The notes: generated by a model from the sequence alone, not told the origin. Positions 29,747 through 49,827 are shown, numbered from the stretch's first letter. The stretch: DNA of 51,584 nucleotides from an uncultured Anaerolineales bacterium (GCA_964649365.1 CAZYPJ010000001.1:8881-60464), one strand, 5' to 3'. Made by a program: numbers and translations.

Positions 29747-31192
29747 CTACTCTTTCCAGGTGAAATGATACGTTACACTCGGCGGGCTGAGCGGCACGCC
29801 ATCTTCTGTCTCCGAAAATCGTTGCACCACCTTCACTTGCCAAGTGTATTCAATAGGATCGCCCTCTTTGGGGTATAGGTCGAGTGGAACGCGCCATGAG
29901 GTTGCTTTCGTCCATTCTTTATGCACATTTGCGGGATATGCAGATGGCCAAATTGTAACCATGTACCATTGATTGGTTGATAGAATGCCCACCGAAGCCC
30001 AGTTAAGCACGATATTGGCTTCGGTTCCCAGCATTACGCTGCGATCTACCGGCGCGAGCAAAGGCGGCGCCAGATAGTCGAACTCATAGGTGGGCCGTGG
30101 AGTTGGCGTCATCTCGATCACCAGCGATCCGGTGATCGCTTTCGTTCCGGTGATCGCGGCGACTGCGATATCCGTATTAGCAGTGGTGGGCGTCTTAAGG
30201 GGCGGGAGCGGCGTTGGCGCTGCTGTCACTCCGGGGATGATTAGCTCTTGCCCTACGCGCAACGTGGTCGTCATGCGGATGTTGTTTGCTTTGGCGATTT
30301 CTTCCCCATCCACTCCATATTTCACCGCCAGCGATCCCAAAAGATCGCCCGATTGCACGGGGTGGATCACCGGCCCTACCGTGGGGACGGCAGTAGGCGC
30401 GTTTGTCGCTGCTGTAGTGGGGGTTGTGATTGCTGCTGCGGTGGGGGCTGTTGTTGCGGGTGATGTCGCAGGGGCCGTTGTGGCCTCGGTCGGCGCCGGG
30501 TTTGTTGGCCCTGCCGTAGGAGCGGGAATAATCAGCTCTTGGCCCACCCGTAACATGGTGGTCAGTTTGATGTTGTTGGCGCTGGCGATGGATGCAGCGG
30601 CCACATCGTATTCTACTGCAATGGACCCCAGATTGTCGCCCGATGCTACTGTATGGATACGGGTGCCTATCGGCTCGGGCGTTGGCGTTACTGTGGACGT
30701 AGCCGAGGGCAGCGGCGACGGCGTCGCTGTTGGCGATGGAGTAAACGTAGCCGTGGGTCGGAGTGTCGGCGTCGGCGGCGTCAAAGAGGGCGTGACGATC
30801 AACATAGCCAACTCTGTGGCTTCTTCGCTAGGCAACGGCAACGGAAGAGGCGTGTTCACACCGAGGATAGGCGTTGGTGTGGCGGGCATCAGCATTAGTG
30901 CCGCCCAAGGCTTGAGCAACAACCCTGCGCCTCCCGCCGCCGCTAGCACGGCTAGGCTGAGCAGCACTTTCCAAGCATTGCCCGATGAATGCCCCTCGGG
31001 CGCTTGTCGCTCGGCCCCACAGATTGGGCATACGGCTTGATGGGCTGTCATACGTGCGCCACACGAGGGGCACTGCTCCGAGCGTTTGCGCGCTATCAGC
31101 GTTTGTCCGCAAGCGGGACACAGGGTAGCGTTGGGGCGCACCCTGCCGCTGCAATGGGGACAACGCAGTTTTCCTTGCAAAAAATCAAACAT
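29747..31192 (-). CDS. Membrane-anchored LysM protein: N-terminal double zinc ribbon, one TM, Pro/Thr linker, two LysM domains, ~130-aa C-terminal domain
   Basis: 481 aa. The zinc ribbons are CPHCSG-x10-CPACG and CPSCG-x10-CPICG. The TM is WKVLLSLAVLAAAGGAGLLL. The LysM domains are HTVASGDNLGSIAVEYDVAAASIASANNIKLTTMLRVGQELIIP and HPVQSGDLLGSLAVKYGVDGEEIAKANNIRMTTTLRVGQELIIP. Confidence 0.85.
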   Translation of the reverse strand: MFDFLQGKLRCPHCSGRVRPNATLCPACGQTLIARKRSEQCPSCGARMTAHQAVCPICGAERQAPEGHSSGNAWKVLLSLAVLAAAGGAGLLLKPWAALMLMPATPTPILGVNTPLPLPLPSEEATELAMLIVTPSLTPPTPTLRPTATFTPSPTATPSPLPSATSTVTPTPEPIGTRIHTVASGDNLGSIAVEYDVAAASIASANNIKLTTMLRVGQELIIPAPTAGPTNPAPTEATTAPATSPATTAPTAAAITTPTTAATNAPTAVPTVGPVIHPVQSGDLLGSLAVKYGVDGEEIAKANNIRMTTTLRVGQELIIPGVTAAPTPLPPLKTPTTANTDIAVAAITGTKAITGSLVIEMTPTPRPTYEFDYLAPPLLAPVDRSVMLGTEANIVLNWASVGILSTNQWYMVTIWPSAYPANVHKEWTKATSWRVPLDLYPKEGDPIEYTWQVKVVQRFSETEDGVPLSPPSVTYHFTWKE

Positions 31193-35477: not shown

Positions 35478-36215
35478 CTAGAGGTCAATCAGATTTGCTA
35501 GTTCGTCGCTGCGTCCTTCTTCGACGGCGGCTATGCGTTCAGCATAGACGCCGCGATATGGAGCGGGCAATAGCAGGCCAATACGCATCATAATCAAATC
35601 CGCCAGTTCTTGCAGCTCGTCAACGGAGGGCTTGTGGTCGAATGCGGGCAGACGAAAAGGTTTGCCCACAATCACCTGGAGTGTGGGGCGCTTGAAGTGC
35701 AGCCAATCACGCAGCCGCTCGACGCCCCAAAAGGTAATGGGCACGATAGCAGCGTTGGTGCGCGTCGCCAAATAAGCGACGCCCGCCTTGGCGCGCTGCA
35801 TCCCGCCGGTGCGGCTGCGAGTGCCCTCGGGGGCGATGGCCAGTACGCCGCCGGCATTGAGTACATCCTGGCACGCTTTGAGCGCCACCCGATCCACCTC
35901 GCCGCGCTGTACAAAGATCACTCCGGCCAAACGCAGCAACGTGCCGATAAAAGCATTGTTTTGCCATTTTTCGGCGGCCAGAGTGACGATCTGTCGCTGC
36001 ACCACCGGCGCGACGGCCAACGGATCGAGCAGGTGAAGGTGATTGACGACAATGATCGTCGGTCCCTGCGCCGGGAAATTGGCCGCGCCGCTTACTTGAT
36101 AGCGATATAACAGATTCATCACAAACCCAAAGAACCACTGTATGGCGCGATAGATCGCCAGGCTCTTTTGGAAAAAGACGACGCGCTTGGGTCTCGCAGA
36201 GACTGATGCCGTCAT
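35478..36215 (-). CDS. plsC: 1-acyl-sn-glycerol-3-phosphate acyltransferase family (PlsC-like)
   Basis: 245 aa with the HX4D motif VNHLHLLD and the acceptor motif APEGTRS. Confidence 0.86.
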   Translation of the reverse strand: MTASVSARPKRVVFFQKSLAIYRAIQWFFGFVMNLLYRYQVSGAANFPAQGPTIIVVNHLHLLDPLAVAPVVQRQIVTLAAEKWQNNAFIGTLLRLAGVIFVQRGEVDRVALKACQDVLNAGGVLAIAPEGTRSRTGGMQRAKAGVAYLATRTNAAIVPITFWGVERLRDWLHFKRPTLQVIVGKPFRLPAFDHKPSVDELQELADLIMMRIGLLLPAPYRGVYAERIAAVEEGRSDELANLIDL

Positions 36216-36400
36216 GCATCCTACTTTCTGGATTTTGCCCCGACGCCATGCAGCGCCAGATGAACCACTATATCATCTCACAGCAGCATTGTACCACACT
36301 CTGGCCTGAAGGCAAGGCGCGTATTACGTTAACGCCATTCGGCGTCGTCGTAGCGATTGCGCCGTCGGCCCAAGTGCGATATAATCCCCGCGAATTCACG

Positions 36401-38401
36401 ATGGTCGTAGAGCCTATCAAACACAGGACGTGGAGCAGGCCAAGTCGAGAATGGGTTTTGCTGGCAGCGATGGTGGTCGTCGCCGCCTTTTTGCGTTTTG
36501 TGGCACTCGATACGCTGCCGCCGGGTCTCTATCGTGACGAGGCGTACAACGGCCTCGATGCGCTGGATGTGCTGCGCGGGCAGACGCCGCTCTTTTTCGA
36601 GGCCAATAACGGTCGTGAGCCATTGTTCATCTATTTGGAGGCGCTGGGTGTGGCGCTTCTGGGACGCTCGCCTGGGGCCTTACGTATCGTCTCGGCAATG
36701 GTGGGCGCGCTCACCATCCCAGTGTTTTATTGGCTTACACGCGAGCTGTTCGGACGACGTGTAGCTACCTATACCGCTATCTTGGCGCTCACCACTGTGT
36801 GGACGCTGAACCTGAGCCGCGTTGCCTTTCGCGCGGTGACGCTGCCGCCGATAGCGGCGGTCGCGTTGGCGCTGTTGTGGCGCGGGCTGGCGCAGCGCCG
36901 ACCGGGGTGCATGGTGTTGGCAGGCGCAGTCTATGGCCTGACCTTTTACACCTACTTGGCGGCGCGATTCAGCATTGTGGCGCTAGCGGTATTTATCGTC
37001 TATTGTGCGATTTGGCGTCGCGAGCGATTTTGGTTACGTGGATGGTTTTGCTTTGCGGCGGCGGCGCTGGTCATCGCTGCTCCATTGGGTGTGTATTTTT
37101 TGGCGCACTGGGATGTGATGATGGCGCGCGCCGGGCAGGTCTCGGTGTTCAGCGAGGCCATCAACCATGGCGATCTGCGGGGCACGTTGCTGCGCCACGT
37201 GGGTCGCGTCGCGCGAGGGTTCTTCTATCGGGGCGATTTCATCCCCCGGCACAATGTGCCGCTGCGGCCCGTGTTCGACCCGCTAATCGGTTTGGCATTC
37301 TTGGCGGGGATCGGGCTGGCGCTCTATCGGGCGCGGCGCGATGCGGCGTATGGTTTGACGCTGATCTGGTTTGGCGTGATGCTGTTGCCCACGATATTGG
37401 CCGAAGATGCACCACACATGCTGCGCGGCTCGGGCGTTCTGCCAACCTTGTTCATCCTGCCGGCGCTGGGCCTGGCCGAGTTTGTCTATTGGATGGAGCG
37501 TAAGGGGCGGGCGATGCTGGCCTATGCGCTCATCGGCGCGGTACTGGCTTTCAGCGCGGGGCAGAGCGTGGCGGCTTATGCTCGTCATCTGCACAGCGAG
37601 GCTGTCTATTACAATTTTGAGGCTGGCGCCACTGAACTAGCTGTCGAGATCAACCGTTATCTCGGCAGCGGCTGGCAGGGCCAGGGGCTGAGCGCCGCCA
37701 ATAGTACGCCCCGCCAGGATCGGCAGGTCTATCTGGCGTCCCGATTGTGGCGCGATTGGCCCTCGGTGCGATTTCTGTGCGCTGCGAGCGATGCGCTGGT
37801 CGTTTTGCCCGAACGAGGAGTTGCGCCTAAACCGAACGCACCCGATGTGATGTTGGCGCTGTGGCCCTTTGAGCCGCGCGATGAGGCGTTGGCCCTTTTG
37901 CCGTCCAACCGCATGATCTCAGTGCGTGAGGGGGCGCGTGAGCGAGGCGACTTGGAGAAAGAAAGCCGCCTGCTTTACGTGTTGTGGCGCAGCGAGCCAC
38001 CCGATAATGCGCCGCGCAACGTCGAGCGCAACTTCGAGCAGGGTATTCGCCTGTTAGGTTACCGTATCCAGCCCAGCGCCGATGAGCAAACGCTGACTGT
38101 GAGCCTTTATTGGCAGGCGATGCAATCCGTCGCTGAGAACTATACTGTGTTCTGCCACATCGTGAGTGGCGGCGGGTTGATCGGCCAACATGACAGTTCG
38201 CCCGCGGGTGGCTATTACGCCACTATGGAATGGCGACCGGGTGACATCGTCGAGGATCGCCATAAGGTTGCGCTGTCATCGCCTTACGATCCAAGCTGCC
38301 AAGTCATCGTGGGTCTTTATCGCTTAGAGACGATGCAACGCCTAGCCGTGCTCGATGCGGCGGGCGCGCCTACATCAGAAACGAGTCTGACGCTCAAATA
38401 G
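36401..38401 (+). CDS. GT-C glycosyltransferase, family 39 / PMT_2 (ArnT/PMT-like) with C-terminal extracytoplasmic beta-rich module
   Basis: From ATG 36401 the product begins MVVEPIKHRTWSRPSREWVLLAAMVVVAAFLRFVALDTLPPGLYRDEAYNGLDA (first-loop DE motif), followed by many TM helices. The C-terminal module is IRLLGYRIQ...LTVSLYWQAMQ...YTVFCHIV...GGYYATMEWRPGDIVEDR...IVGLYR. TATAAT at 36380-36385 with TTGCGC 17 bp upstream would give a very short leader. ATG 36248 is an alternative start. Confidence 0.83.
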   Translation: MVVEPIKHRTWSRPSREWVLLAAMVVVAAFLRFVALDTLPPGLYRDEAYNGLDALDVLRGQTPLFFEANNGREPLFIYLEALGVALLGRSPGALRIVSAMVGALTIPVFYWLTRELFGRRVATYTAILALTTVWTLNLSRVAFRAVTLPPIAAVALALLWRGLAQRRPGCMVLAGAVYGLTFYTYLAARFSIVALAVFIVYCAIWRRERFWLRGWFCFAAAALVIAAPLGVYFLAHWDVMMARAGQVSVFSEAINHGDLRGTLLRHVGRVARGFFYRGDFIPRHNVPLRPVFDPLIGLAFLAGIGLALYRARRDAAYGLTLIWFGVMLLPTILAEDAPHMLRGSGVLPTLFILPALGLAEFVYWMERKGRAMLAYALIGAVLAFSAGQSVAAYARHLHSEAVYYNFEAGATELAVEINRYLGSGWQGQGLSAANSTPRQDRQVYLASRLWRDWPSVRFLCAASDALVVLPERGVAPKPNAPDVMLALWPFEPRDEALALLPSNRMISVREGARERGDLEKESRLLYVLWRSEPPDNAPRNVERNFEQGIRLLGYRIQPSADEQTLTVSLYWQAMQSVAENYTVFCHIVSGGGLIGQHDSSPAGGYYATMEWRPGDIVEDRHKVALSSPYDPSCQVIVGLYRLETMQRLAVLDAAGAPTSETSLTLK

Positions 38402-38427
38402 ATTGCTTATGGCCAGGAGGAAATCGA

Positions 38428-39720
38428 ATGCGCCGAGTATCAATCATTGCTGTTCTGCTGTTGTTGCTGCTCGCCCTGGTGATAGGCGCTTTGCCCGGCG
38501 TACAGGCAGGCTGCGCGGGGAACGCCTTGCCCAACGGCGACTTCGAGGCCGGCTTTTCGGAGCGCGGATCGGGCGAGGTGACGGTGGCCAACCAGTGGAC
38601 GCCCTATTGGCAGGACGGCCCCGACCAGGACAAAGGTATGAATCGTCGCCCTGAATACAAGGCGGAGGACGCCAATCGCTACGGCCGGCAGCGCGTCAAG
38701 GAAGGCAATTACGCCCAAAAAAGGGGCAACAACTATGCCACTCATCATGGGGGCGTCTATCAACGGGTCGGCGTCCCGGCGGGCAGCCAGGTGAGCGTTC
38801 ATGTCTGGGCGCAGGCCTGGAGTTCGGAAAAGGATGATCCCAAGTCCGTGTCGGATGGGGCGTATGGCCTCTCCATCGGCCTGGATCCAACCGGCGGCGC
38901 CGATTGGACTTCGTCCAATATCATTTGGTCGGAACGCAATGGCGCGCTGAATACCTGGGTTGAGTTTACGCTGGCGGCGCAAGCTCAAGGCGATGCTGTG
39001 ACCATCTATCTGCGCGGCGACGCCGAGTGGCCCGTAAAGCACAATGACGCCTATTTCGATGATGTGTGCCTTACGGTCTCGGCCCCGCAACCTACGGCCA
39101 AACCTACCAGCAAACCTCAGCCCACCAACCCGCCTGCGCCCAAGCCTTCGGCTACGCCCGAAACCGAGCCGACCGAGGCGCCGACTGAGGCGGCTGAAGC
39201 GCCTACTGCGCCCGCGCCCACCGACACGCCTGCTACGGGAGCGCTTCGCGTGGTCGTCTTTGAGGACAAGAACGGAAATGGTTTGCGCGACGCCGATGAG
39301 CCGCTGTTGCCCAACGCTCGCATCACTCTGCTCAATATGCAACGCGCGCCGGTGGCGAGCCACACGACTCAGGGCGGCTCGGAGCAAGTGACTTTTGCGT
39401 CGCTGGCGCCGGGTGACTATATTCTTACCGAGCGAGATCCGGATGGGTACGAATCCACTTCGCCCAACGAGTGGGCCGTCACCGTTCTCGCCGGAGCGCA
39501 AAAGGAGTTGACTTTTGGCGACCGCGCTATCCCGGTGTCGCCGACGCTCACCGCCGAGCCGAGCGCTACGCCGCTTCCGCCCACCGAAGCCCCGGCGACA
39601 GCCACACCGGTACCCGTCAAGGCTGCTGGCCGAGGGGCGACCACCATGAGCGGCTTGCTGGTAGCGGCGCTGGCGGTGCTCTTATTGGTGGCCGTGTGGT
39701 TCATGCGAGCCAGGGAATAA
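38428..39720 (+). CDS. Secreted/anchored protein: signal peptide, CBM-like jelly-roll, Pro/Thr/Ala linker, SdrD-B/CnaB-like domain, second PT stretch, C-terminal TM anchor
   Basis: 430 aa, with AGGAGGAAA upstream. The signal peptide is MRRVSIIAVLLLLLLALVIGALPGVQA. The head has NALPNGDFEAGFS...AYFDDVCL. The linker PQPTAKPTSKPQPTNPPAPKPSATPETEPTEAPTEAAEAPTAPAPTDTPATG spans ~39080-39240. Then come VVVFEDKNGNGLRDADEPLLPNARITL...GDYILTE and the tail LLVAALAVLLLVAVWFMRARE. Confidence 0.8.
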   Translation: MRRVSIIAVLLLLLLALVIGALPGVQAGCAGNALPNGDFEAGFSERGSGEVTVANQWTPYWQDGPDQDKGMNRRPEYKAEDANRYGRQRVKEGNYAQKRGNNYATHHGGVYQRVGVPAGSQVSVHVWAQAWSSEKDDPKSVSDGAYGLSIGLDPTGGADWTSSNIIWSERNGALNTWVEFTLAAQAQGDAVTIYLRGDAEWPVKHNDAYFDDVCLTVSAPQPTAKPTSKPQPTNPPAPKPSATPETEPTEAPTEAAEAPTAPAPTDTPATGALRVVVFEDKNGNGLRDADEPLLPNARITLLNMQRAPVASHTTQGGSEQVTFASLAPGDYILTERDPDGYESTSPNEWAVTVLAGAQKELTFGDRAIPVSPTLTAEPSATPLPPTEAPATATPVPVKAAGRGATTMSGLLVAALAVLLLVAVWFMRARE

Positions 39721-39728
39721 CGGGCGCT

Positions 39729-42401
39729 ATGCCTTGCCATGATCTAGCGCGCTCAACCGAGTATAGCGCCAGGGAGCGGCCCTATGGCCTCGCCCTGGCG
39801 TTGTGTTTGGCTGCCCTGGCGGCGCTGCCCTTGCTGATCGGTCCCGGCATCGTGCTCACGCGCGCGGGCGGTGATTCGCCGTTCCTCATCCAGCGGGTGC
39901 ATCAGCTCGCCCAAAATCTGCGCGCCGGGATCGCGCCCGCCCAATGGATGCCCGACGCCGCCTATGGGCTGGGCTACCCCATGTTCCGCTATTACGCGGC
40001 GCTGCCCTATTACCTTGCCGCCGCGCTCGACATCGCCGGGGCGGGGGTGTTGTGGGGAACCAAACTGACGCAGGCATTGGGTTTTTTGCTGGCAGGCTGG
40101 GCGATGTATCGGTTAGCTCGCGCGTCAGGGGCCAACGCGCCAGGCGCAGTATTAGCCTCGGCGGCCTACACCTATGCGCCGTTCCACTTGGCCAACGTCT
40201 ATGTGCGCGGCGATGCGCTCTCCGAGTTCTATGCTTATGCGCTCTATCCACTCATTATCTGGGCGCTGATCGCCCTTTGCGAAAAGGCCACGCCCGCGCG
40301 CATCGCGGCGCTAGCGGCGAGTTATGCAGCTTTGGCGCTGACGCACAACATCTCGGTTCTGATCTTTAGCCCTTTGGTGGGTGTGTGGCTATTGGTCGAG
40401 GCACTCGGCTCACGACCCCGCCGCGCTTGGCGCACGCTGTTGTGGGGCGGGCTGGCGCTGGCGTTGGGGCTGGCGCTCAGCGCCTGGTTTTGGTGGCCAG
40501 CCCTGAGCGAGCAGAATCTGGTGCAGCTTCAGGAACAGACCACTGGCTACTTTCACTATGAGGGACACTTTCGCACCCTAAACCTGGTCAATTGGCGGCC
40601 AGTGCATAATTACTCCATTGATGGCAGGCGCGACCCTTTCAATATGGGCCTGATACAGGTCCTTTTGACATTGGCCAGTCTAGCGGCGCTGGTCGTACGC
40701 CGCATCAAACGGCAGCCAATTTCACGGGTGCAAGGGCTGGCTATCCTGGCCCTGGTGGTCTATACCGTGTTGATGACGCCCCTCTCTAATTGGCTGTGGG
40801 CGCACATGCCATTGTTGCCATTTGTGCAATTCCCCTGGCGGCTCCTTGCGGTGCAAGCGGTCGCTGTGAGCTTGTTGACCATCGTTCTGACCGAAGCGCT
40901 GAATAACTGGCGAGCCTGGACCGTATCCTTTATTGCCGCCAGCGCGCTGGCCATTGGTGGGATGGTAGGTCTGAATCTCGACCGCCTGTCTATCAGCGAA
41001 TCCGAAATCACCCCTGAGCGACTGATGCTCTTTGAGAGCTATTCGGGCAACATCGGCACGACCATTCGCTACGAATACCTGCCCCGCGAGATGCTGCCTC
41101 GCCCCTATACTTCGGCGGTGCAAGCAAACGGCGGGCGCAAACCCGCGCCGCTGGCCCTGGAAGGCAAGCTCACAGCGGCAAATCTCGTGGCGCGTAACCC
41201 GGAATCGGAAAGCTGGCAGATCGAGGTGGCCGAAGAATCGCTATTGGCTTTTCATACCGTTGCCTTCCCAAATTGGCAAGCGAGCGTGGATGGGATCGCG
41301 CAACCGCTCGAATCTCTTGGCGGCCTGGGGCTGATCGGCCTGCGGCTGCCTGCGGGCCAGCATCGCGTCGAGCTGCGCTATCGCTCTACCTCTACACGGC
41401 AGGCGATGGGACGGGTCTCGCTAGGCGCGGGCATGGTTTGGTTGGCGCTGGCGCTTTATCCAGCCTTCAAATCGGCGCGCTACCGATTGGGCGCGCTGGC
41501 TGTCGTGTGGGCGCTCATTATCGCCGGGGCCTGGGTGGTCGTGACCCCCATATCACTCCCTGCGACGGGGGCGTTCACCGGGCCGCTGGTGATGGACACC
41601 ACGCGCGCGCCCTATCTGCATCACGAGCCGGAGGGCGTGTATTGGGGTGACGTGCATCTTACTGATTATGCTATCGAAGAGACCGAACTCGAACCAGGCG
41701 GCCACCTGCGTGTGACGCTGTCTTGGGATGCGTCGCATCCCGATTATCAGGCGCACGTCCAGCTTTTGGGTCTCACGGCGCACCACATGGAGCCAGCGCC
41801 GATCTGGGCCAAGAAAAAGGGCGCGATCACCACGACGCAGACCACGCTAGAGGTAACGCTGCCCGATGATCTGCCGCCGGGGCTGTATGCGCCTCGGCTG
41901 GTCATCGAAAAGGATGGCGATGAGCAGCTTGCCAGCACAGCATCGGGGCGCTCGATGGATCGGCTGTCGCTAGCGCCCGTTCAGGTTGTGGCCGCTCGTC
42001 GCGCTACTGGCCAAGAGCAGGCGCTGGCTGCCTACGGCCCCGAACAGGCGCCGCCCGAAATCTCGCTGCTGGCGCTGAGCGCCGACCGCACCGGCAAGCG
42101 GACGGTGGCCGTGTCGTTGACGTGGCGCAGCGAGCGACAAGCGCCGCTCAACTATATGATGTCGCTGCGGCTGGAACACCCCGATGGCTATGTAGTCGTC
42201 TCGCGCGATCTGCCGCCATTGCTGGGGGGCTATCCCACCAGCTTGTGGCGCCCGGGCGAATTGGTCGCCGATCGTGTGATCTTGATCTTACCCCAAGATG
42301 AAACTCTGCGGGCCGATTACACTCTACGGGTAGTGCTTTATGACCGCGCTACCATGCGCTCTATTGGCGAAGGAATGGCGCAGGGCGTGGACTTGCGCTG
42401 A
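39729..42401 (+). CDS. Large polytopic GT-C-fold membrane protein (COG5617 / PTPS-related or YfhO-like) with two C-terminal beta-rich modules
   Basis: 890 aa from ATG 39729, 8 nt after the upstream stop. The first loop is GGDSPFLIQRVHQLAQNLRAGIAPAQWMPDAAYGLGYPMFRYYAALPYYL, followed by more than 12 TM helices. The C-terminal modules are LRVTLSWDASHPDYQAHVQLL and VAVSLTWRSERQAPLNYMMSLRLEHPDG...GGYPTSLWRPGELVADR...LRVVLYD. The track start 39471 overlaps the previous gene. Confidence 0.72.
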   Translation: MPCHDLARSTEYSARERPYGLALALCLAALAALPLLIGPGIVLTRAGGDSPFLIQRVHQLAQNLRAGIAPAQWMPDAAYGLGYPMFRYYAALPYYLAAALDIAGAGVLWGTKLTQALGFLLAGWAMYRLARASGANAPGAVLASAAYTYAPFHLANVYVRGDALSEFYAYALYPLIIWALIALCEKATPARIAALAASYAALALTHNISVLIFSPLVGVWLLVEALGSRPRRAWRTLLWGGLALALGLALSAWFWWPALSEQNLVQLQEQTTGYFHYEGHFRTLNLVNWRPVHNYSIDGRRDPFNMGLIQVLLTLASLAALVVRRIKRQPISRVQGLAILALVVYTVLMTPLSNWLWAHMPLLPFVQFPWRLLAVQAVAVSLLTIVLTEALNNWRAWTVSFIAASALAIGGMVGLNLDRLSISESEITPERLMLFESYSGNIGTTIRYEYLPREMLPRPYTSAVQANGGRKPAPLALEGKLTAANLVARNPESESWQIEVAEESLLAFHTVAFPNWQASVDGIAQPLESLGGLGLIGLRLPAGQHRVELRYRSTSTRQAMGRVSLGAGMVWLALALYPAFKSARYRLGALAVVWALIIAGAWVVVTPISLPATGAFTGPLVMDTTRAPYLHHEPEGVYWGDVHLTDYAIEETELEPGGHLRVTLSWDASHPDYQAHVQLLGLTAHHMEPAPIWAKKKGAITTTQTTLEVTLPDDLPPGLYAPRLVIEKDGDEQLASTASGRSMDRLSLAPVQVVAARRATGQEQALAAYGPEQAPPEISLLALSADRTGKRTVAVSLTWRSERQAPLNYMMSLRLEHPDGYVVVSRDLPPLLGGYPTSLWRPGELVADRVILILPQDETLRADYTLRVVLYDRATMRSIGEGMAQGVDLR

Positions 42402-42412
42402 ACAGACGCTCG

Positions 42413-45322
42413 CTACTCGATAGGGACAGCGCCCACGTGAAGCGTTGTCCCCTGCCCTTGCCGCACCAGACGCTCATCCAGCACGGAAAGCGGTTGCAGT
42501 GTGAAGGCGTCGTACACGGTTAACGTCAGCGTCGCCTCGCCGCGCGGGGCGTCGGCGAGGAGCGTGATCCGGCGCGGATCGGTCACACGCCAACCGCGCA
42601 CCCATTTGAGCGTGGGAATAGCCCCTAATGCCGGAGTGCCGTCCGATTTCTGCTCCCAGCCCACATCGGGGCGCGTCACGCCGAACGACATGGAGTAATC
42701 GGCCAGCAACGGGCGCAGCGTCAGGAAATTGAGCGACCAATACGCTTCTTGGCCGGCGATGGCTTGGCTGGGCGATTGCCCCAAGCCGACAAAGGCCATC
42801 TCGCCGCCCAAGGGCACATAGCGCGCTACCGAGCGCGGCAGTTCAAGCCGCATTCCCGCCGACGTGCGCCGATGCCAGGGGCCGAATCTGCCAAGTGGTT
42901 CGCCGCCATCTCTCACGACTTGTACTTCTACCTCTGCCAGATTGTTAGTCATGTCGAGCGCCAGAGTGGCCGCCTCGCCGGGCCGCAGCGCGGGCAGAGC
43001 CGCCTCGGCGATGATCTGTTTTGCGGTCAGCAGGCGCACCGTTGCCTGGCTCGAGTCGGCGCGCCCGCGCCAATGCAAGTAAAGCCGCGTCTGCCCGGCG
43101 ACGCCTCGGTCGAAATCCACACCGGTCAGGCGTAGCCCGCCGTCGAAATCCAGGCGTAGCGGGTGCAACGTGGCTGCCGATTCACGTCGGGGACGCACGG
43201 CAAGCGTGGTCAGCGCAATGTGATCTTGCCCTTGAGAGGTGAGCCGCATCCAACCGTTGCCATCAGAGTAGTAGAATCCTGTGATGAGCTGATACTCTCC
43301 CGGCGGCGTGTGCAAAAGCAAAGCAAAGCGATAGTGATCGGCCCGCACCTCGCCGACGAGATATTCGCGTGAGCGATGAGCGACGTCACCCTGGCCCACC
43401 ACGCCGCCCGGCCCGATGAGCTGTGCAAAGGTCGAATAGTCGCGCGCTAAAGGCTGGGTGGGCTGCCAATACACGGTCAGCTCGACGGCGTCGCCGGGGG
43501 TCAGCGTATCCTGGGCCAGCTCATAGCCCAATATGCGGATGCCTTCCTCGAACGACGCCTCGCTGCCCATCGCCTGGGCGGGCAGCGCATTCAAAGGTTC
43601 ACGGCTCGCCAGCCAGGCGTCGTGAAGCGGCAGCCAATGGTAGCCCACACCCTCGTAAGCATAGAACCAGTTGGTCACAATCACCGGGCGTTGATCTATC
43701 TCTTCGCCAATGCGCCGCAGCCATACCTGCTCGTTGGGCGTAGCTCCCTCGGGATAGACATATGTCACCTCTACATCGGGCCGCATCCCTTCGACCTGCT
43801 GTAGATACCAAAACGGCGTGGCGCGGTGCCAACTGGATAGGATCAGCGCATCAGCGGGTGCGTCGCGCAAGATCGCCTCGGCATAGTCGCGCGCCGAAGT
43901 GTCCTGGTGCAAGGTGTGGTAGCTGGGCCAATTGGCCACGCCGTTCGACGCCGCCAGCAGCGCCAACCCAGCGACGACTGTGGCATTTGCCCAGCGCGGC
44001 CAGGCGCGTTGCGCCAGCCCCAGGCCATAGCCCAGCAACATTGCCAGCGCCACATAGGAAGGAATGAGGTATTCCACCGTCTGTGGGGCGCGATAGGTGA
44101 TGGCTGCCAGGGTGTTGATGGCCCACGTTCCCCCTAACAAGAGCAACGTCCGCCAGTTCGAGCGCGCCGTGGGCCAGACGGCCAGCAGCATAGTCCAGGG
44201 TAGGATAGCGCCGAATTGCAGCCGCATGATCTCGACCCACACGCCGGCGCGCGGCGCCAATGTGTTCCAGGTGCGATAGTGCAGGAAATCGCCGCCAAAG
44301 CCGAGCGCCAGCACGTGGGTGACAAAGGCGTCCCACGTGCGAATGGGGCTGGAGTCGAAGGAACTGCCCATTAGGCTGCGGAGCGGCAAATAAGCCAACA
44401 CAGCCAGCGATGCGATCAACGCCAGCGCCGCGCCGCCCCAACGTTTGGGTTGCAAGACGATGCGCGGATCGGCGACCAGGATGTAGGCCAGAAACGGGAA
44501 TCCCAGCAAGCCAATCGAAGCATGATGTCCGACGCCCAGCCCGAAACATACGGCAAAGGCGATCAGATCCCGCCGAGAGCGCGTCTCGCCCCAGCGCAGC
44601 AATCTAGCCAAGCTCAGCGCGGTGAGCAGCGCCGTGAGGGTGCGAATATTAGCCGTGGTGCTCTGCGCCCAATAGGTGGCGGTCAGACCCAGCGCGCCGA
44701 CGGCGATCAGCGTCGCTGAGGTCGAGCCGACAGCGCGGCGCACGCTTCGCGCGATCACCGCCAAGGTCAACGCCCCGCACACCGCGCCGTACAAGTTGAC
44801 GCGCCAGGCTATCTCCCCGATGGGCAGCAACGTGAACAACCGCCCCAGCATGGTGTAGAGCGGATAGCCGGGCGGGTGGGCGATGCCCAGCACGGCGCTG
44901 ACCAGTTGAAACTCGCCGCTATCGGCGGGCAGGATAGTGGGGGCCAATGTGCCCACATAAAGCATCAGCGCGGCGAGGAATACGCCGATTTCCAGCCAGG
45001 GACTGCGCGGCAGAGGATGCGCATTGAGCGCGATCAACATCACCAACGCCGCGCCCCCGATGGCCAGCGCCATGAGCGAATTCGCTTGGGGATAGATGAC
45101 ATAAGCCGCCAGCGCGAAAATGGGCCAGGTGCGCGGCGCGATGCGGCGCAGCGCCGCCGCTAATCCCAACCCCGCGACTATGCCGCCCAACGCAATCGGC
45201 AGCAAGATTAGCCAGCGCAGCCCTTCCGCCGAGGTCTCGGCGGCCACGCGGCTGAGGTATAGCCCCAGGATCATGCCTTGAGCAGTGTTGCTCTTACGCA
45301 AGCTCGCAAGCCAGGCTTTCAT
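42413..45322 (-). CDS. DUF2723 / TMEM260-like GT-C glycosyltransferase with three C-terminal beta-rich modules
   Basis: 969 aa from ATG 45322-45320, which overlaps the GT4 TGA (ATGA). The first loop is TLAPTILPADSGEFQLVSAVLGIAHPPGYPLYTMLGRLF, followed by many TMs. The C-terminal third (42416-43560) has IRILGYEL...VELTVYWQPTQPLARDYSTFAQLIG and two further related modules. Confidence 0.78.
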   Translation of the reverse strand: MKAWLASLRKSNTAQGMILGLYLSRVAAETSAEGLRWLILLPIALGGIVAGLGLAAALRRIAPRTWPIFALAAYVIYPQANSLMALAIGGAALVMLIALNAHPLPRSPWLEIGVFLAALMLYVGTLAPTILPADSGEFQLVSAVLGIAHPPGYPLYTMLGRLFTLLPIGEIAWRVNLYGAVCGALTLAVIARSVRRAVGSTSATLIAVGALGLTATYWAQSTTANIRTLTALLTALSLARLLRWGETRSRRDLIAFAVCFGLGVGHHASIGLLGFPFLAYILVADPRIVLQPKRWGGAALALIASLAVLAYLPLRSLMGSSFDSSPIRTWDAFVTHVLALGFGGDFLHYRTWNTLAPRAGVWVEIMRLQFGAILPWTMLLAVWPTARSNWRTLLLLGGTWAINTLAAITYRAPQTVEYLIPSYVALAMLLGYGLGLAQRAWPRWANATVVAGLALLAASNGVANWPSYHTLHQDTSARDYAEAILRDAPADALILSSWHRATPFWYLQQVEGMRPDVEVTYVYPEGATPNEQVWLRRIGEEIDQRPVIVTNWFYAYEGVGYHWLPLHDAWLASREPLNALPAQAMGSEASFEEGIRILGYELAQDTLTPGDAVELTVYWQPTQPLARDYSTFAQLIGPGGVVGQGDVAHRSREYLVGEVRADHYRFALLLHTPPGEYQLITGFYYSDGNGWMRLTSQGQDHIALTTLAVRPRRESAATLHPLRLDFDGGLRLTGVDFDRGVAGQTRLYLHWRGRADSSQATVRLLTAKQIIAEAALPALRPGEAATLALDMTNNLAEVEVQVVRDGGEPLGRFGPWHRRTSAGMRLELPRSVARYVPLGGEMAFVGLGQSPSQAIAGQEAYWSLNFLTLRPLLADYSMSFGVTRPDVGWEQKSDGTPALGAIPTLKWVRGWRVTDPRRITLLADAPRGEATLTLTVYDAFTLQPLSVLDERLVRQGQGTTLHVGAVPIE

Positions 45323-46479
45323 CGGCGCCTCCCCGTCAGATCGAACGACTCGCGATAGGCGTCGTGGGTTTGGCGCGCGGTCTCGATCCAAGAAAATTGT
45401 CGCGCGTGGCGCAAGCCTGCTGCGGCCAACTCACGGCGGGCGGCGCCGTCTTGCGCCAGGTAAACCAGCGCCTCGGTCAACGCGCCCACATCGGTGGGGG
45501 GGACGGCTAACCCGCCCGGCCCGGCTACCTCTTCCAGCGAACTGCCCTGGCCAACAATGGCCGGCGCGCCGCATGAGATCGCTTCGAGCACGGGCAGCCC
45601 GAATCCTTCATAGTATGAGGGAAAGACGAATGCCAATGCGCCGGCGTAGAGTGCGGGCTTGTCTTCCTCGGCTACCCAGCCGGTATAGTGTACAGAGTCA
45701 TCCAAACCCAAGCTGTGGCTCAACGGGCGTGGATCGGGTGCAAAGGTTGTGTCGCTAGATGGCAACTTGCCCGCGATCACCAGCCTGATGTCGCCCAAAC
45801 GAGGGCGCGCCTGGGCATAGGCACGCAGCAGGCCGGTCACATTCTTGCGGCAATCGAACCCGCCCAGATAGAGGAAATAGGGCGCGCGCACACCCAAGCG
45901 GTCGAGTGTGGATTGATATTGATTGGGCGGTAGAGGCGCATAGCGTTCCTCGGCGGCAAGATAGATCACGCGCACGCGCTCTGCTGGGATGCGCAGAATG
46001 CGCTCGATGTCGCGCGCCGACGCTTGCGAGTCAGTGAGAACGAGTGTGGCTCGTCGGGCTGCCGCGGAAACCAGCCGCATATAGCCTTGCACCATTTTGG
46101 AGCCGCGATAATCGGGCAGCAGCAGTGGGATCAGATCGTGGATGGTGACCACCGTCGGCGCAGAGGGCCATAACGGTGAAGCAAAATATGGTGCGTGAGC
46201 CACGTCCACACTCCATTTTGCGCAAGCGCGAGAGTAGGCTACCTGCTCAAACCAAACCTTAGCCATGTTCTCGTTGATGCGGTCGAACGGCGTGGATAAA
46301 ACACGACATACGCCGTACACCGCGTTGTTATCTGAGGCGGCGCGCGCCCAGGATGGCGCGCACAGTATATATTCGTCTTGAGAGGCTACGCTTGGCAGCG
46401 TGCGCCACAAATGATGCAAATACTGCCCGCTGCCGGTAGTCTCCTGGCCCCAAAAGGCGCCGTTGATGCCGATTCTCAT
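45319..46479 (-). CDS. Glycosyltransferase family 4 (GT-B, retaining, cytoplasmic)
   Basis: 386 aa. Shows MRIGINGAFWGQETTGSGQY and the EX7E region FVFPSYYEGFGLPVLEAISCGAPAIVG. Confidence 0.9.
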   Translation of the reverse strand: MRIGINGAFWGQETTGSGQYLHHLWRTLPSVASQDEYILCAPSWARAASDNNAVYGVCRVLSTPFDRINENMAKVWFEQVAYSRACAKWSVDVAHAPYFASPLWPSAPTVVTIHDLIPLLLPDYRGSKMVQGYMRLVSAAARRATLVLTDSQASARDIERILRIPAERVRVIYLAAEERYAPLPPNQYQSTLDRLGVRAPYFLYLGGFDCRKNVTGLLRAYAQARPRLGDIRLVIAGKLPSSDTTFAPDPRPLSHSLGLDDSVHYTGWVAEEDKPALYAGALAFVFPSYYEGFGLPVLEAISCGAPAIVGQGSSLEEVAGPGGLAVPPTDVGALTEALVYLAQDGAARRELAAAGLRHARQFSWIETARQTHDAYRESFDLTGRRR

Positions 46480-46575
46480 TGCGTTTTCCTATGCTTCATT
46501 ACATGCGACCTTTCGGGTCATCAGAGGCAATGGTAGCTTAAGCGCCCGAAAAAGGCAATCTGGCTTCTTTGGTGG

Positions 46576-46605
46576 TTCACGGCTAGGGATAGGGTGTGGT
46601 ACAAT
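46576..46605 (+). promoter_or_regulatory. TG-extended -10 promoter candidate for the lipoprotein-hydrogenase gene string
   Basis: TGgTACAAT (46597-46605) with a weak -35 TTCACG (46576-46581, 18-bp spacer). A second TGtTATCAT sits at 46621-46629. Confidence 0.25.
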
Positions 46606-46650
46606 GCGGCTGTGCGAACGTGTTATCATCTCACCATTCATCGAGGCGCT

Positions 46651-47661
46651 ATGGCTCGAACCCGTTCACTCTATTTGGCGCTGATCTGTCTTGTGGCAGC
46701 CTGGATGTTGGCTGGCTGTTTGCCCTCTGTGGTTCACACCGAGCACGAGTACATCCTGCTGCGCACCGCGGATGACAAGCTGGTCAGCGCGCCCGATGAC
46801 GATCCCTTGTACGAACAGTTCGACCGCGAGGTGTTGAGCGACCCATACTTGCGCCATCTGCTGATGGTGTTCGAACACACCACCGAGGCGTTCCTAGCTA
46901 CCAACACCCGCACGCGCTATCCCCAGACTGTGGCCAACCGCCCAATGATTGTGCTCGATAGCACCCAGCCGGGCGTATTGCGCAACGTGCGCGCCGATTT
47001 CGATGGGACGCCCATGCGCATCGAGTTGGCGTTGGGTTTGGGGCGCGAGGGGACGATGGATATGGTCGCCGCGCGCGACCATATGGCTTTAGCGATGGCT
47101 TCGCTGACGATGGAGTTGATGGGCGTCGAATCGGCGACGGCGATATGGCCGACTGCGGATGAGGTCGTTGCGCCCGACCTGGCGTTCGAGCGTGGCCTGC
47201 AAATCGCTTTCGAGGTCATGCGCGCCGCGCGCGACCCCAATTTGCTGCGCTCCGCCAAACAATTTGATGGCAATTCAGCGGCGGACGACCGCCTGGCTTG
47301 GTATGGGTTCGTGCCGAGCAATGGCTATCGCTATCGCTTTGCCGACGGTCAGCCCACTGCCGCGCTGCGCTCACCCGATGAAGCGCTATGCACGCCCGGC
47401 GTGACCGCCGCCTTCTTCTACCGGTTAATGCAGCGCAGCGACGACTATTATCCGCAGCGTTTTATGCTTTGGTTCGTCAATTACGACGCCGACGAAATCG
47501 CTGAGGCCAAGATCGTGTTGCCCTTACGTTACTTGGCAAGGGGCGATGTTTCAATGCGCGCCTTTATCAAAAGTTATATTGAGACCTACCCGGCAGACAA
47601 GGAGCGTGTGCTTGCCCTGGCCAACGAGACCTTTGGGGCCAGCGATTGGCTTGCGCCCTAG
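46651..47661 (+). CDS. Hypothetical lipoprotein (no family recognised)
   Basis: 336 aa from ATG 46651. The signal with lipobox is MARTRSLYLALICLVAAWMLAGC. The track ORF starts at 46594. Confidence 0.6.
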   Translation: MARTRSLYLALICLVAAWMLAGCLPSVVHTEHEYILLRTADDKLVSAPDDDPLYEQFDREVLSDPYLRHLLMVFEHTTEAFLATNTRTRYPQTVANRPMIVLDSTQPGVLRNVRADFDGTPMRIELALGLGREGTMDMVAARDHMALAMASLTMELMGVESATAIWPTADEVVAPDLAFERGLQIAFEVMRAARDPNLLRSAKQFDGNSAADDRLAWYGFVPSNGYRYRFADGQPTAALRSPDEALCTPGVTAAFFYRLMQRSDDYYPQRFMLWFVNYDADEIAEAKIVLPLRYLARGDVSMRAFIKSYIETYPADKERVLALANETFGASDWLAP

Positions 47662-47680
47662 CGTCAACGTAGGAGGAATA

Positions 47681-48526
47681 GTGAACGCGACGACGAGTTT
47701 TGCAGTGTTGCAACTTTCGGGCTGCGCGGGTTGTGAGGTGTCGCTGCTCAACGCCGAGGATTGGATCGGGCGGCGCAGCCTACGCTATATGCCGTTGGTG
47801 ATATCGAGCGAAGATTTTCCCGAAGTGGATACGCTGCTCGTCACCGGCGCCGTGCGCACCGATGAGGATCTCTATCGTTTGCGGCAAGCGGCCAGCCGCG
47901 CTAGGGAGTTGATTGCTGTGGGCACCTGCGCCATCTCGGGTGGGGTGGCCAACTTGGGCGACCGCGACGAGGTGCGCGCTATGTTCTTTGCCGATATGGA
48001 GCGCCGCCATGTGCCCCGTCTGTTGCCCAAGCTGCACCCAGTGGACGCCATTGTGCCGGTGACGCGCTACCTTCCCGGTTGTCCGCCCACGCCTCATCTA
48101 TTCATGGCGGCGTTGTTCAACCCGGATGACTTTCAAGCTGCCAAGACGGTGTGCATCGAATGTGGTCGTAAAAAGACGCGCGACCGCCCCCCGCACCTGT
48201 TGGGCTTTCAGAGCGGGCGGGTAGATCCCGAGACGTGTTTGATTAACCAAGGCTATCTGTGCATTGGCTCTTCTACGCGCGGCGGCTGCGGCGCGCCTTG
48301 CACCCGCGCAGGCCACCCATGCGTGGGCTGTCGCGGCCCTTCCGAGGGGTTTATCTCGCGCTCGTCGCGAGAGTGGTTCGCTGCTATCCGCAAGGTATTC
48401 GAGCGGATGACCGCTGTTCCCTCGGAAGAGCTGGATGAAGCGCTGCGCTCGCCGCAGTTGGCGCTGTTCATCTTTCAGTTCTCTGATTATGCCGCCATCC
48501 CCCGCGATGTAAAGAAGGTGCTTTGA
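47681..48526 (+). CDS. [NiFe]-hydrogenase small (FeS) subunit, cytosolic group-3-like (no Tat signal)
   Basis: 281 aa. GTG 47681 has AGGAGG (47671-47676) 4 nt upstream. The proximal-cluster cysteines are in QLSGCAGCEVS, GTCAISGG and YLPGCPP. A further 8 Cys sit in CIECG...CLINQGYLCIG...GGCGAPC...PCVGC for the medial and distal clusters. The track start 47546 overlaps the upstream gene. Confidence 0.85.
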   Translation: MNATTSFAVLQLSGCAGCEVSLLNAEDWIGRRSLRYMPLVISSEDFPEVDTLLVTGAVRTDEDLYRLRQAASRARELIAVGTCAISGGVANLGDRDEVRAMFFADMERRHVPRLLPKLHPVDAIVPVTRYLPGCPPTPHLFMAALFNPDDFQAAKTVCIECGRKKTRDRPPHLLGFQSGRVDPETCLINQGYLCIGSSTRGGCGAPCTRAGHPCVGCRGPSEGFISRSSREWFAAIRKVFERMTAVPSEELDEALRSPQLALFIFQFSDYAAIPRDVKKVL

Positions 48527-49827
48527 TGGCCACGCTTACCATTCCGCTCAGCCGCATCGAAGGGCACGCCCAGGTCACCATCACCTTTCACGGCCATGAA
48601 GTTCTCTCCGCTCACTTTCAGGCCACCGAGTTGCGCGGGTTCGAGTATTTCGTGCAAGGGTCGCGGGCCGAGGATTTGCCCGTCATTGTGCCGCGCATTT
48701 GTGGGGTGTGTTCCACGGCGCACCACATCGCCGCCGTCAAGGCGTTGGAGCACGCCTTTGGCGTGACCCCGCCTCCGAAAGCGGTGCGCATTCGCGAGCT
48801 GATGATGCTGGGGCAATTGATCCAAAACCAGGCCACCTCGCTCTTTGTGTTCACCATGCCTGACTTGCCGGGCCGCGAGGGGTTGCCCAGTATGTTTCAC
48901 TTTGGGGCCGAAGACGCTGCGCTCGCGCCCAGGGCGTTGCAAGTGCGCCGCGCTGGCACCGAGTTGATCGCCCTGGCGGGGGGCCAGTTCATTCATCCCG
49001 TCAAGGCGGTCGTCGGTGGGGTGACTTCGGGCGTGGCCGCCGAGGCGGCCCGCGCCATGCGCGCTCGGCTACAAGAGGCGTTGCCGTTGGCCCAAGAGTT
49101 GTTCGAGCGCTACTGGACGCTGTTTGTGGGCCTCAAAGATCGCATTGGCACTTTGGGCGACGATAATCCTACCTACTATCTGGCTGCGGTCGAGCCGCAT
49201 CATGCCTATTATGGCAACCGCATCGGCGTGTTAGCACCCGACGGCGTGGAAGAAGCTTCGTTTCCGGCCTGCGACTATACTCGCTACCTCACCGAGTCGC
49301 CGGTCGAGACCAGCTATTCCAACGGTACCCTGTTCAAAGGCCAGATGCTGCGGGCCAATTCGCTGGCTCGGCTCAATATGCTGCCCGTATTGGGAACCCC
49401 TCTGGCCGACCGTTACATGGCTCGCTTTCGCGGCGAGTTCGGCTACCCTGCGCACGCCATTCTGCTGTTCGATCTGGCGCGCGGCGTCGAGTTGGTCTAT
49501 TGCCTCGAACGCGCCCTGGAATTGCTGGAGGAAAACCTTGACGGCGACGACCTGCGCGTGGCTTATACGCCACGTGATGGCGAGGGCTGCGGCTTGGTTG
49601 AAGCGCCGCGCGGCCCGCTGATCCACCATTACGCCATCGCCGATGGCCTGGTGCGCAGCGCCAAGTTCATCATCCCCACGCAGCACAACATTCTGGCCAT
49701 CGAGCGCGCCCTGCTGGTGGCGGCGCGGCGCTATATCACTGCGCAGGGCATCAGCCTCGAACTCGAGCGCGCTGTGGGGCGCGTGGTGCGCGCTTTCGAT
49801 CCGTGCATCGCGTGTGCGACACACTGA
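48526..49827 (+). CDS. [NiFe]-hydrogenase large subunit, group-3-like, ending at the DPCxxCxxH histidine
   Basis: 433 aa. ATG 48526 overlaps the small-subunit TGA by 1 nt. Shows N-terminal SRIEGHAQV and the L1 motif RICGVCSTAHH. The C-terminal DPCIACATH (49798-49824) is followed immediately by TGA 49825-49827. Confidence 0.9.
   Translation: MATLTIPLSRIEGHAQVTITFHGHEVLSAHFQATELRGFEYFVQGSRAEDLPVIVPRICGVCSTAHHIAAVKALEHAFGVTPPPKAVRIRELMMLGQLIQNQATSLFVFTMPDLPGREGLPSMFHFGAEDAALAPRALQVRRAGTELIALAGGQFIHPVKAVVGGVTSGVAAEAARAMRARLQEALPLAQELFERYWTLFVGLKDRIGTLGDDNPTYYLAAVEPHHAYYGNRIGVLAPDGVEEASFPACDYTRYLTESPVETSYSNGTLFKGQMLRANSLARLNMLPVLGTPLADRYMARFRGEFGYPAHAILLFDLARGVELVYCLERALELLEENLDGDDLRVAYTPRDGEGCGLVEAPRGPLIHHYAIADGLVRSAKFIIPTQHNILAIERALLVAARRYITAQGISLELERAVGRVVRAFDPCIACATH

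Follow-up and report, generated by a model that had tools for sequence, protein, structure and literature searches.

A modular glycosylation gene cluster of Anaerolineae with GT-C enzymes around a Pro/Thr-linker surface protein

Glycosyltransferases of the GT-C type work outside the cytoplasm, at the outer membrane face, with sugars linked to polyprenyl phosphate as donors (PMC6801728, PMC11127046). In Caldicellulosiruptor bescii, the GT39 enzyme Cbes_1864 is encoded in the same locus as its substrates, which bear Pro/Thr linkers and carbohydrate-binding modules (CBMs), and its deletion abolishes all protein glycosylation (PMC6151902). In the Chloroflexota, O-glycosylated threonine has been seen in an archaellin, where the responsible enzymes are unknown (PMC12488501). 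Here we analysed a locus of five genes, A to E, in a stretch of 51,584 nucleotides (the window) from an uncultured Anaerolineales bacterium (GCA_964649365.1, CAZYPJ010000001.1:8881-60464). The locus encodes three GT-C enzymes of different families, a GT4 enzyme and a secreted, anchored protein B, and represents one form of a modular cluster for envelope glycosylation that is kept across Anaerolineae. The component families and their general logic are already known. The conserved combination is new: an A-C core, embedded B genes, a facultative GT117-GT4 pair and a shared, unannotated domain. In the literature, we found no characterised glycosylation system of Chloroflexota and no description of the B family, in agreement with the first-pass annotation of the window, which knew of no characterised Chloroflexota counterpart.

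The five genes and the described systems they resemble

The order of the genes was confirmed from the map of open reading frames (ORFs), the translations and the junction sequences. Positions are counted from the first letter of the window.

36401-38401, + strand: gene A, 666 amino acids, GT-C of the PMT_2 type
38428-39720, + strand: gene B, 430 amino acids, secreted protein anchored at its C-terminus
39729-42401, + strand: gene C, 890 amino acids, polytopic GT-C of the PTPS_related/YfhO type
42413-45322, - strand: gene D, 969 amino acids, TMEM260-like GT-C (DUF2723, CAZy GT117), convergent on C
45319-46479, - strand: gene E, 386 amino acids, GT4 of the GT-B fold, cytoplasmic

The junction sequences gave gaps of 26 nucleotides between A and B, 8 between B and C and 11 between C and D, and the stop codon TGA of E overlaps the start codon ATG of D as ATGA. 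The order, strands, gaps and overlap described in the first-pass annotation were all reproduced. A strong, canonical Shine-Dalgarno sequence, AGGAGG, lies 7 nucleotides before the ATG of B inside the A-B gap and is found with B alone. The choice of start codons is backed by alignments of orthologues, where M1 is conserved in all or nearly all sequences. When positions 35900-46800 were scanned, promoter-like sites occurred at chance level and all terminator-like sites were intragenic, which is uninformative on the operon structure. In NCBIfam, no equivalog was found for any of the five proteins. The Pfam searches matched the expected families, PMT_2 for A, PTPS_related for C, TMEM260-like for D and both GT4 halves for E.

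The match of A to PMT_2 (PF13231) reached 41.1 bits against a cut-off of 26.1 (E 2.7e-10, residues 74-229). The first loop of A carries LPPGLYRDEAYNGLDA, with YRDEAYNG at residues 44-51. No variation was seen at D46-E47 in 38 homologues. We infer from homology and from the basic N-terminus that this loop faces outward. In its PMT_2 type and the expected use of lipid-phosphate sugars outside the membrane, A resembles the GT39 systems of the actinobacterial Pmt and of C. bescii, and in both cases the candidate acceptors are the Pro/Thr linkers of secreted, CBM-bearing multidomain proteins. In contrast to the single enzyme of these systems, the cluster has three to five GT-Cs of different families, and its candidate substrate is membrane-anchored and encoded between the enzymes. 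Moreover, A matched only the broad PMT_2 family; the window protein had no Pfam match to PMT (PF02366), MIR or PMT_4TMC, and searches of the PDB with A and C, both as single sequences and as family profiles, gave no useful relative. The assignment of A to GT39, as made in the first-pass annotation, is therefore not established.

The AlphaFold2 model of A showed a confident GT-C fold (pLDDT 89, pTM 0.86). Its best match in Foldseek was ArnT (5f15; E 1.4e-9, TM-score 0.55 on the target, 17% identity). Further matches were AglB/STT3/PglB, Pmt4, ALG9/12, EmbC and AftA, with Pmt1/2/4 ranked lower. Since these neighbours are of varied kinds, the fold does not tell the acceptor of A. Many homologues of A are labelled ArnT-like by JGI and NCBI. 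However, no arn genes lie nearby, there is no lipid A evidence here, and the Anaerolineae relatives differ from ArnT (GT83, the lipid A aminoarabinose transferase) by an extra extramembrane domain of ~270 residues.

Protein C matched PTPS_related (PF10131) with 51.3 bits against a cut-off of 26.4, and has the first loop GGDSPF (GGDSPFLIQR) with D49 invariant in the orthologue alignment. Its group is that of the YfhO/GtlB enzymes, which glycosylate lipoteichoic acid in Bacillus and Listeria, and the GT2 gene found upstream of A in some related loci could match a CsbB-type lipid-sugar synthase. In contrast to this three-component system, the C-terminal YfhO match of C (PF09586) stayed below the cut-off (26.7 against 28.5 bits), and the scanned ORFs of the window include neither a GT2 nor a GtcA-type flippase. 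Polyglycerol-phosphate lipoteichoic acid is not known from Chloroflexota.

Protein E matched Glycos_transf_1 in its C-terminal half (99.8 bits) and Glyco_transf_4 in its N-terminal half (48.4 bits). Its relatives in the PDB, MshA, sucrose-phosphate synthase, GlgM and PimB' (3okc), are all GT4 enzymes, and by sequence E is best described as a generic GT4. A GT4 beside several GT-Cs, with up to five GT-Cs in the arrays of relatives, is reminiscent of the mycobacterial pathways for phosphatidylinositol mannosides, lipomannan and lipoarabinomannan and for arabinan. The likeness extends to C-terminal extracytoplasmic beta-sandwiches on the GT-Cs, as in Emb and AftD, to the match of E with PimB' and to that of the A fold with EmbC and AftA. 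Unlike in these pathways, no genes for the synthesis of a lipid anchor are conserved with the cluster, and a Pro/Thr-linker protein is embedded here. Neither A, C nor D had an above-cut-off match to GT87, GT85 or GT53 in Pfam.

For D, the match to TMEM260-like (PF11028) amounted to 99.8 bits against a cut-off of 24.2, in addition to a match to PMT_2, and the protein carries the motif LPADSGEF. The structure of human TMEM260 (9rql_A) was matched with an E value of 8.5e-22 (query 112-519, chain 30-462); the match covers the entire GT-C core and the beginning of the luminal domain. Judged by this sequence similarity, D is a true homologue of TMEM260, which bears out the call of the first-pass annotation. 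The NCBI names of its homologues, 'glycosyltransferase family 117 protein' and 'protein O-mannosyl-transferase family', are homology-based only. According to the paper describing the human structure, the essential residues are D52 and H67 in the donor site, D441 as the catalytic base, and R264 and Y267 in the donor loop; the tetratricopeptide repeat (TPR) domain binds the acceptor, and the human enzyme O-mannosylates IPT domains. The residues were paired by a pairwise HMMER alignment, in which local shifts are possible. D52 and H67 correspond to D134 and H149 of D, both invariant in 20 orthologues. D differs from the human enzyme in an extra N-terminal hydrophobic region of ~110 residues and in its GT4 partner, and no IPT-type sequon is visible in B.

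Conservation of the cluster in Anaerolineae

Look-ups of three homologues of B showed the order PMT_2, B and PTPS_related in 3/3, with unrelated flanks, and DUF2723 and GT4 genes in 2/3. A scan of species-representative genomes yielded 547 relatives of B. The best 80 loci were kept and scored by tblastn with the window proteins; the denominators vary with the reach of the contigs. At the 54 species-level loci with a full-length orthologue of B, gene A preceded B in 47/50 and gene C followed it in 50/51, both on the strand of B. D was convergent in 19/37, and E was present together with D in 13/31. Paralogues of B that consist of the head only or carry LysM, without SdrD_B and the anchor, had no GT-C nearby in 26 of 29 loci. 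Since the same order and strands recur at dozens of species-level loci with differing flanks, the cluster is not a matter of chance. One of the loci with the cluster, L043, comes from a metagenome-assembled genome of an Anaerolinea sp. All kept loci were labelled Anaerolineae/Chloroflexota, except for the head-only loci L059 and L081, labelled 'uncultured Pleurocapsa sp.' (cyanobacteria), which may be explained by mis-binning or by a wider spread of the head domain.

The cluster is built in a modular way. A is followed by C on the same strand, and in the clade of the window one to four B-family genes lie between the two. The D-E pair converges on this core in about half of the loci, and a GT2 or a fourth GT-C is sometimes added. 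This optional fourth GT-C is of the PMT_2 type and has a 'WDEGWS' loop; tandem copies of B are also optional. Some loci (L144, L152, L156, L165 and L051) have two to four strongly divergent B-family genes in tandem in the slot between A and C. At L144:3688-9802, these encode proteins of 763, 525 and 537 amino acids and a 186-residue protein with SdrD_B and the anchor; the protein of 763 residues, the one of these that was scanned, has LysM.

The GT2 gene, which is absent from the window, was the immediate upstream neighbour of A in 14/76 related loci, for example at L008:630-1682, L003:6850-7860 and L086:8955-10001. It encodes a soluble-looking protein of ~350 amino acids, for which the best typing was PpgS (polyprenyl-phospho-GalNAc synthase) with a marginal E value of 5.6e-4 and no PDB relative. 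On these NCBIfam and PDB results, it is not callable as a polyprenyl-phosphate sugar synthase; it could be the donor synthase. A flippase was not seen in the related loci. At L088:5484-9852, A-B-C are preceded by divergently oriented genes for a Bac_transf priming phosphotransferase and two GT4 enzymes, a hint that this organism may use a route through lipid-diphosphate-linked oligosaccharides.

Loci were also chosen through A, C or D. Two of three A homologues were in A-B-C clusters, and the third (L086, GCA_964407215.1) had the order GT2-A-C without B. A metagenome scan with a C-family profile gave 80 loci, in which A was upstream of C in 38/41 and a window-like B was found between A and C in 29/57 by tblastn. 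With an iterated profile of the head, any B-family gene was found in this slot in 34/57. The five loci gained by this profile contain divergent B-like proteins of 456-763 amino acids, up to three or four in tandem. The loci chosen through D were two complete clusters and one isolated D that lies ~13 kb from the A-B-C genes of its genome (L169 and L033). D and E are facultative neighbours (19/37 for D and 12/43 for E), and the core of the cluster is A-C. The three GT-C families that the first-pass annotation saw around B are present in the window, and this arrangement is one variant of a modular cluster.

The surface protein B and the shared C-terminal domain

About 48 full-length homologues of B were found, with 38-85% identity, all in Anaerolineae/Chloroflexota metagenome-assembled genomes or metagenomes, and one match was 100% identical. 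An exact look-up of the B of the window gave no record, but proteins 100% identical to A, B and D are present in the JGI/Logan data, which places the window on an environmental Anaerolineae contig. The architecture of B was derived from an alignment of 28 orthologues with 35 invariant columns, and from an AlphaFold2 model with a mean pLDDT of 79, in which both folded domains reach ~90 and the linkers stay below 50.

38428-38508, + strand: signal peptide, residues 1-27, RR followed by a hydrophobic stretch, helix 2-20 in the model
38509-39075, + strand: head, residues 28-216, CBM-type beta jelly roll, pLDDT ~85-94
39076-39231, + strand: linker 1, residues 217-268, rich in Pro, Thr and Ala, disordered in the model
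39232-39528, + strand: SdrD_B or prealbumin-like beta-sandwich, pLDDT ~90
39529-39720, + strand: linker 2 (368-408, rich in Pro, Thr and Ala) and anchor (transmembrane helix 409-429, basic tail)

Cleavage of the signal peptide likely occurs after the conserved Ala27, which in the alignment is followed by a nearly invariant Cys29. Most of the invariant columns are in the head, with the stretches 'WxPWWQDGP', 'GIDPTGGTD' and 'HNDAYFDD', and the head ends near a nearly invariant Cys214. Foldseek matched the head to TmCBM61 (2xon, TM-score 0.78 on the target), CBM16, CBM4-2 and CBM70, all with a probability of 1.00. In Pfam, the B of the window had no CBM match, and CBM_4_9 appeared only below threshold in a distant homologue. 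The model supports a carbohydrate-binding module at the level of the fold, and with TmCBM61 as the best match, the CBM-like head of the first-pass annotation is borne out at this level. The same holds for the linker, the CnaB/SdrD-B-like domain and the C-terminal transmembrane anchor, which were recovered by Pfam, the model and the alignment. Within residues 266-363, Pfam matched SdrD_B with 36.9 bits against a cut-off of 29.7 (276-347) and SpaA with 25.6 bits, and the SdrD structure 10ps was matched in the PDB (E 5e-4).

In linker 1, P220, T227 and P230 are invariant among the 28 orthologues; the medians are 67% for Pro, Thr and Ser together and 14 for the count of Ser and Thr. The divergent B-like proteins in the A-C slot have a signal peptide, an 'NLLxNPGFE' head and a P/T/S-rich linker right after the head, with a P/T/S fraction of 0.47-0.83 in the best window of 30 residues. 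Nearly all have a C-terminal anchor, and LysM and SdrD_B were found in both of those that were scanned. A short PT[ND][TP]P motif (e.g. 'PPTNTP') was found directly behind the head in 70/106 B-family ORFs that are linked to the cluster, compared to 11/32 unlinked paralogues and 7/43 other Pro/Thr-linker ORFs, a contrast that is inflated by sequence relatedness. The motif is enriched, not exclusive, and is a possible glycosylation sequon. In distant relatives of B, the head is kept, and either the stalk and anchor are swapped for three LysM or LysM is inserted before SdrD_B. From these LysM-bearing variants we conclude that the B family belongs to the cell wall.

The three GT-Cs of the locus resemble each other only in their extracytoplasmic C-terminal regions (BLASTP E values of 1.3e-12 for A and D and 1.5e-6 for A and C). 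A profile of this domain was used with hmmsearch to locate its copies.

38015-38386, + strand: one copy in A, residues 539-662
41631-42362, + strand: copies in C, residues 635-685 (partial, i-E 3.8e-6) and 777-878 (1.6e-32)
42470-43561, - strand: copies in D, residues 588-699 (i-E 1.2e-28), 723-774 (partial, 8.2e-7) and 852-951 (3e-25)

The domain has ~115 amino acids and is all-beta with ~8 strands in the model of A. Its near-invariant residues are W, P, W, D and G and the stretch 'Q.D..P..G.YPT..W..GE'. No Pfam family was matched at E<=1, and a link to Wzt_C, seen in 2/53 proteins, was not reproduced. Some homologues of D carry a precomputed PF28495 annotation, a family absent from the Pfam copy used here, which may be the shared domain. 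The optional fourth GT-C of related loci also bears the domain. In a library of 1.84 billion proteins, 14,895 representatives were found at E<=1e-3. The typical host is a protein of 700-1100 amino acids with 1-4 tandem copies at its C-terminus. Among 53 sampled hosts, the cores were PMT_2 (33), PMT (13), DUF2142 (10), TMEM260-like (7), PTPS_related (4), YfhO (3) and GT22 (1). We conclude that the shared domain is an accessory module found on GT-C enzymes in general. That all GT-Cs of the cluster bear it suggests a common ligand. A binding module common to B and the GT-Cs was dropped as an idea, as hhalign gave a probability below 2% for the head and SdrD_B against the C-terminal domain.

Candidate acceptors of the cluster enzymes

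The reading that we favour, with slightly less than even confidence, is that the linkers of B are O-glycosylated stepwise outside the membrane by the GT-Cs of the cluster, which would make B the candidate acceptor. B would be exported by Sec and kept tethered by its C-terminal helix. The GT-Cs would then O-glycosylate the Pro/Thr linkers on the outer face of the membrane from polyprenyl-phosphate sugars, the different families adding different sugars or linkages, such that one initiates and the others extend or branch. The common acceptor may be held by the shared beta-sandwich modules. The glycosylated linkers would act as rigid stalks, resistant to proteases, on which the head is carried into the wall or through it. 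Further acceptors are probably served by the enzymes as well, since A-C pairs without B occur in other lineages.

The dependency of the genes is one-way: B needs A-C, and A-C needs no adjacent B gene. This supports B as the substrate, since a substrate needs its enzymes and not the reverse. The slot with two to four divergent B-like genes that keep their linkers behaves like a cassette for clients. The conservation of the linkers and the enriched motif also support glycosylation there, the motif being weak evidence, as does the precedent of C. bescii. In addition, the AGGAGG site of B alone in a tightly packed operon fits an abundant product. The enzyme families also speak for this reading, D as a TMEM260 homologue that keeps the donor-site residues and A as a confidently modelled GT-C with an invariant DE in its first loop.

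Other results weigh against this reading. Full-length B sits between A and C, as a synteny check proposed in the first-pass annotation had asked, but the slot is B-less in 23/57 of the loci chosen through C. The absence of the sandwiched protein from orthologous clusters, named there as an argument against the idea, thus applies to part of them, including L086, the nearest relative of the window, in which A abuts C, and D and E are convergent. A abuts C in ~17 of the loci chosen through C. A neighbour-joining tree of C placed the majority of the B-less loci in two deep clades; the clade of the window is almost all B-positive, L086 being B-less. No other Pro/Thr-linker gene was found near the B-less A-C pairs, and a non-homologous substrate filling the slot was rejected for this reason. 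B-less clusters form operon-like arrays in which up to five genes for polytopic proteins follow one another and overlap or abut (L107:13-11042, L108, L110, L116 and L126-L128). All five proteins bear the shared domain. The extra members are two 'WDEGWS' PMT_2-like proteins and one PMT_2/GT87-like protein, and 2/3 are recognisable GT-Cs of the PMT_2 type. Such arrays of up to five GT-Cs are typical of polymer assembly, and they agree no less well with the making of a complex glycan or polymer than with protein O-mannosylation.

The proteins themselves add to these objections. Pro/Thr linkers also occur in unlinked paralogues of B and in other proteins of the window and are therefore not specific to the cluster. 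Within B, conservation is highest in the head, which shows that B has a function of its own. The cytoplasmic GT4 has no obvious role in a polyprenyl-monophosphate pathway, and no GT2 polyprenyl-phosphate sugar synthase or flippase was found among the ORFs scanned across the 51.6-kb window. The nearest solved fold to the model of A, ArnT, is that of an enzyme with a lipid acceptor, and the only YfhO enzymes that have been characterised act on lipoteichoic acid (PMC5836110). In D, the catalytic base D441 of TMEM260 is replaced by His499, which is invariant in the family, R264 and Y267 correspond to A339 and F342, and three beta-sandwich repeats stand in the position of the missing TPR. The proposal of the first-pass annotation, a dedicated glycosylation module with B as its substrate, thus holds for the families, the extracytoplasmic logic and the linkage of B; the frequent absence of B and the ArnT, YfhO and D features speak against it.

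It is possible, though in our judgement less probable than glycosylation of the B linkers, that the GT-Cs build or decorate a wall polysaccharide or a lipoglycan. E would then make a cytoplasmic primer, and B would be a lectin-like, tethered partner and not the acceptor. Its head, with LysM in the variants, would bind the polymer or peptidoglycan and organise or anchor the polymer. A cytoplasmic start of this kind is found in mycobacteria, where PimA and PimB' precede PimE and the Mpt enzymes. The prominence of the CBM-type jelly roll in B and the LysM of variants and paralogues would suit such a partner, the B-less arrays with the domain on each of up to five GT-Cs would suit polymer assembly, and the similarity of E to MshA and PimB'-type GT4s would suit a primer. 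The folds nearest to A (ArnT, with EmbC and AftA also matched), the teichoic acid acceptor of YfhO-type enzymes (PMC5836110) and the loss of the acceptor-side residues and the TPR of TMEM260 in D point in the same direction. However, full-length B is almost never found away from A-C, the multi-B slot looks like a set of clients, and the Pro/Thr linkers and their motif are conserved. In addition, the sole characterised member of the family of D is a protein O-mannosyltransferase, and the cluster contains no genes for polymer export, a ligase or a priming phosphotransferase, with the exception of L088.

A proteoglycan-like molecule with B as its protein core would unite the glycosylation of the B linkers with the assembly of a glycopolymer. 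A joint version, in which the B family are proteoglycan-like, wall-spanning glycoproteins with a multi-sugar O-glycan made by three to five GT-Cs, including the first substrate-assigned bacterial GT117, and in which the beta-sandwich is the module that recruits the acceptor, is in its entirety rather unlikely.

An improbable alternative is that A-C, with or without D, is a general O-glycosylation machinery for exoproteins with Pro/Thr linkers and that B is an accessory, for example a lectin for substrate handling or quality control. A-C without B in many lineages would agree with this, as would the common occurrence of Pro/Thr-linker proteins, two more of which are encoded in the window (19862-27064 and 29747-31192), and the finding that D can sit elsewhere in the same genome. 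But the two conserved Pro/Thr linkers of B itself would meet the same enzymes, and tandem, divergent B-like genes are not expected for a cofactor. Finally, a coincidental adjacency of unrelated membrane-protein genes can be rejected with near certainty on the synteny counts, since the same order and strands are kept in more than 70 loci of different species and metagenomes with unrelated flanks and a B identity of only 33-57%, and the genes are spaced by 26, 8 and 11 nucleotides or overlap as ATGA.

The envelopes of Chloroflexota are poorly understood, and the cluster is the best current candidate for an envelope or protein glycosylation pathway in this phylum. It offers a genetically testable hypothesis with candidate enzymes, an acceptor and a linker motif. 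If the glycosylation of B is true, it would give a first functional context to the bacterial homologues of TMEM260/DUF2723, which are relatives of a human disease gene. If instead a glycopolymer is made, the cluster would comprise the assembly genes of an unknown wall glycopolymer or lipoglycan of Anaerolineae together with its binding protein. The cluster also draws attention to a very common, unannotated extracytoplasmic domain of GT-Cs.

Next to the cluster, the upstream neighbour is a divergent gene for a PlsC-type acyltransferase and the downstream neighbour is an ORF of 355 amino acids without a Pfam family. Neither is kept with the cluster at other loci, and the PlsC-type gene next to A is specific for the window. 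The first of the two further Pro/Thr-linker proteins (19862-27064, + strand) is a surface protein of 2400 amino acids that combines Big_3_5, DUF11, Big_9 and cadherin-like domains. With a linker rich in Pro and Thr around residue 2261, it is a potential further target of O-glycosylation. The second (29747-31192, - strand) has 481 amino acids and two LysM; a double zinc ribbon lies at its N-terminus, and a linker rich in Pro and Thr begins at about residue 133. Elsewhere in the window, 2542-5091 (+ strand) encodes a DEAD/Helicase_C helicase that has an MrfA Zn-binding domain and in which an HNH nuclease domain is embedded, and 10467-13109 (- strand) a protein of 880 amino acids that is made up of LVIVD repeats over nearly its whole length (18 matched stretches, E 5e-151). 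Directly on the 3' side of the cluster, two overlapping ORFs at 47546-49827 (+ strand) resemble, by eye only, the small and large subunits of [NiFe] hydrogenases, as seen from Cys-rich motifs and a C-terminal 'DPCIACATH'.

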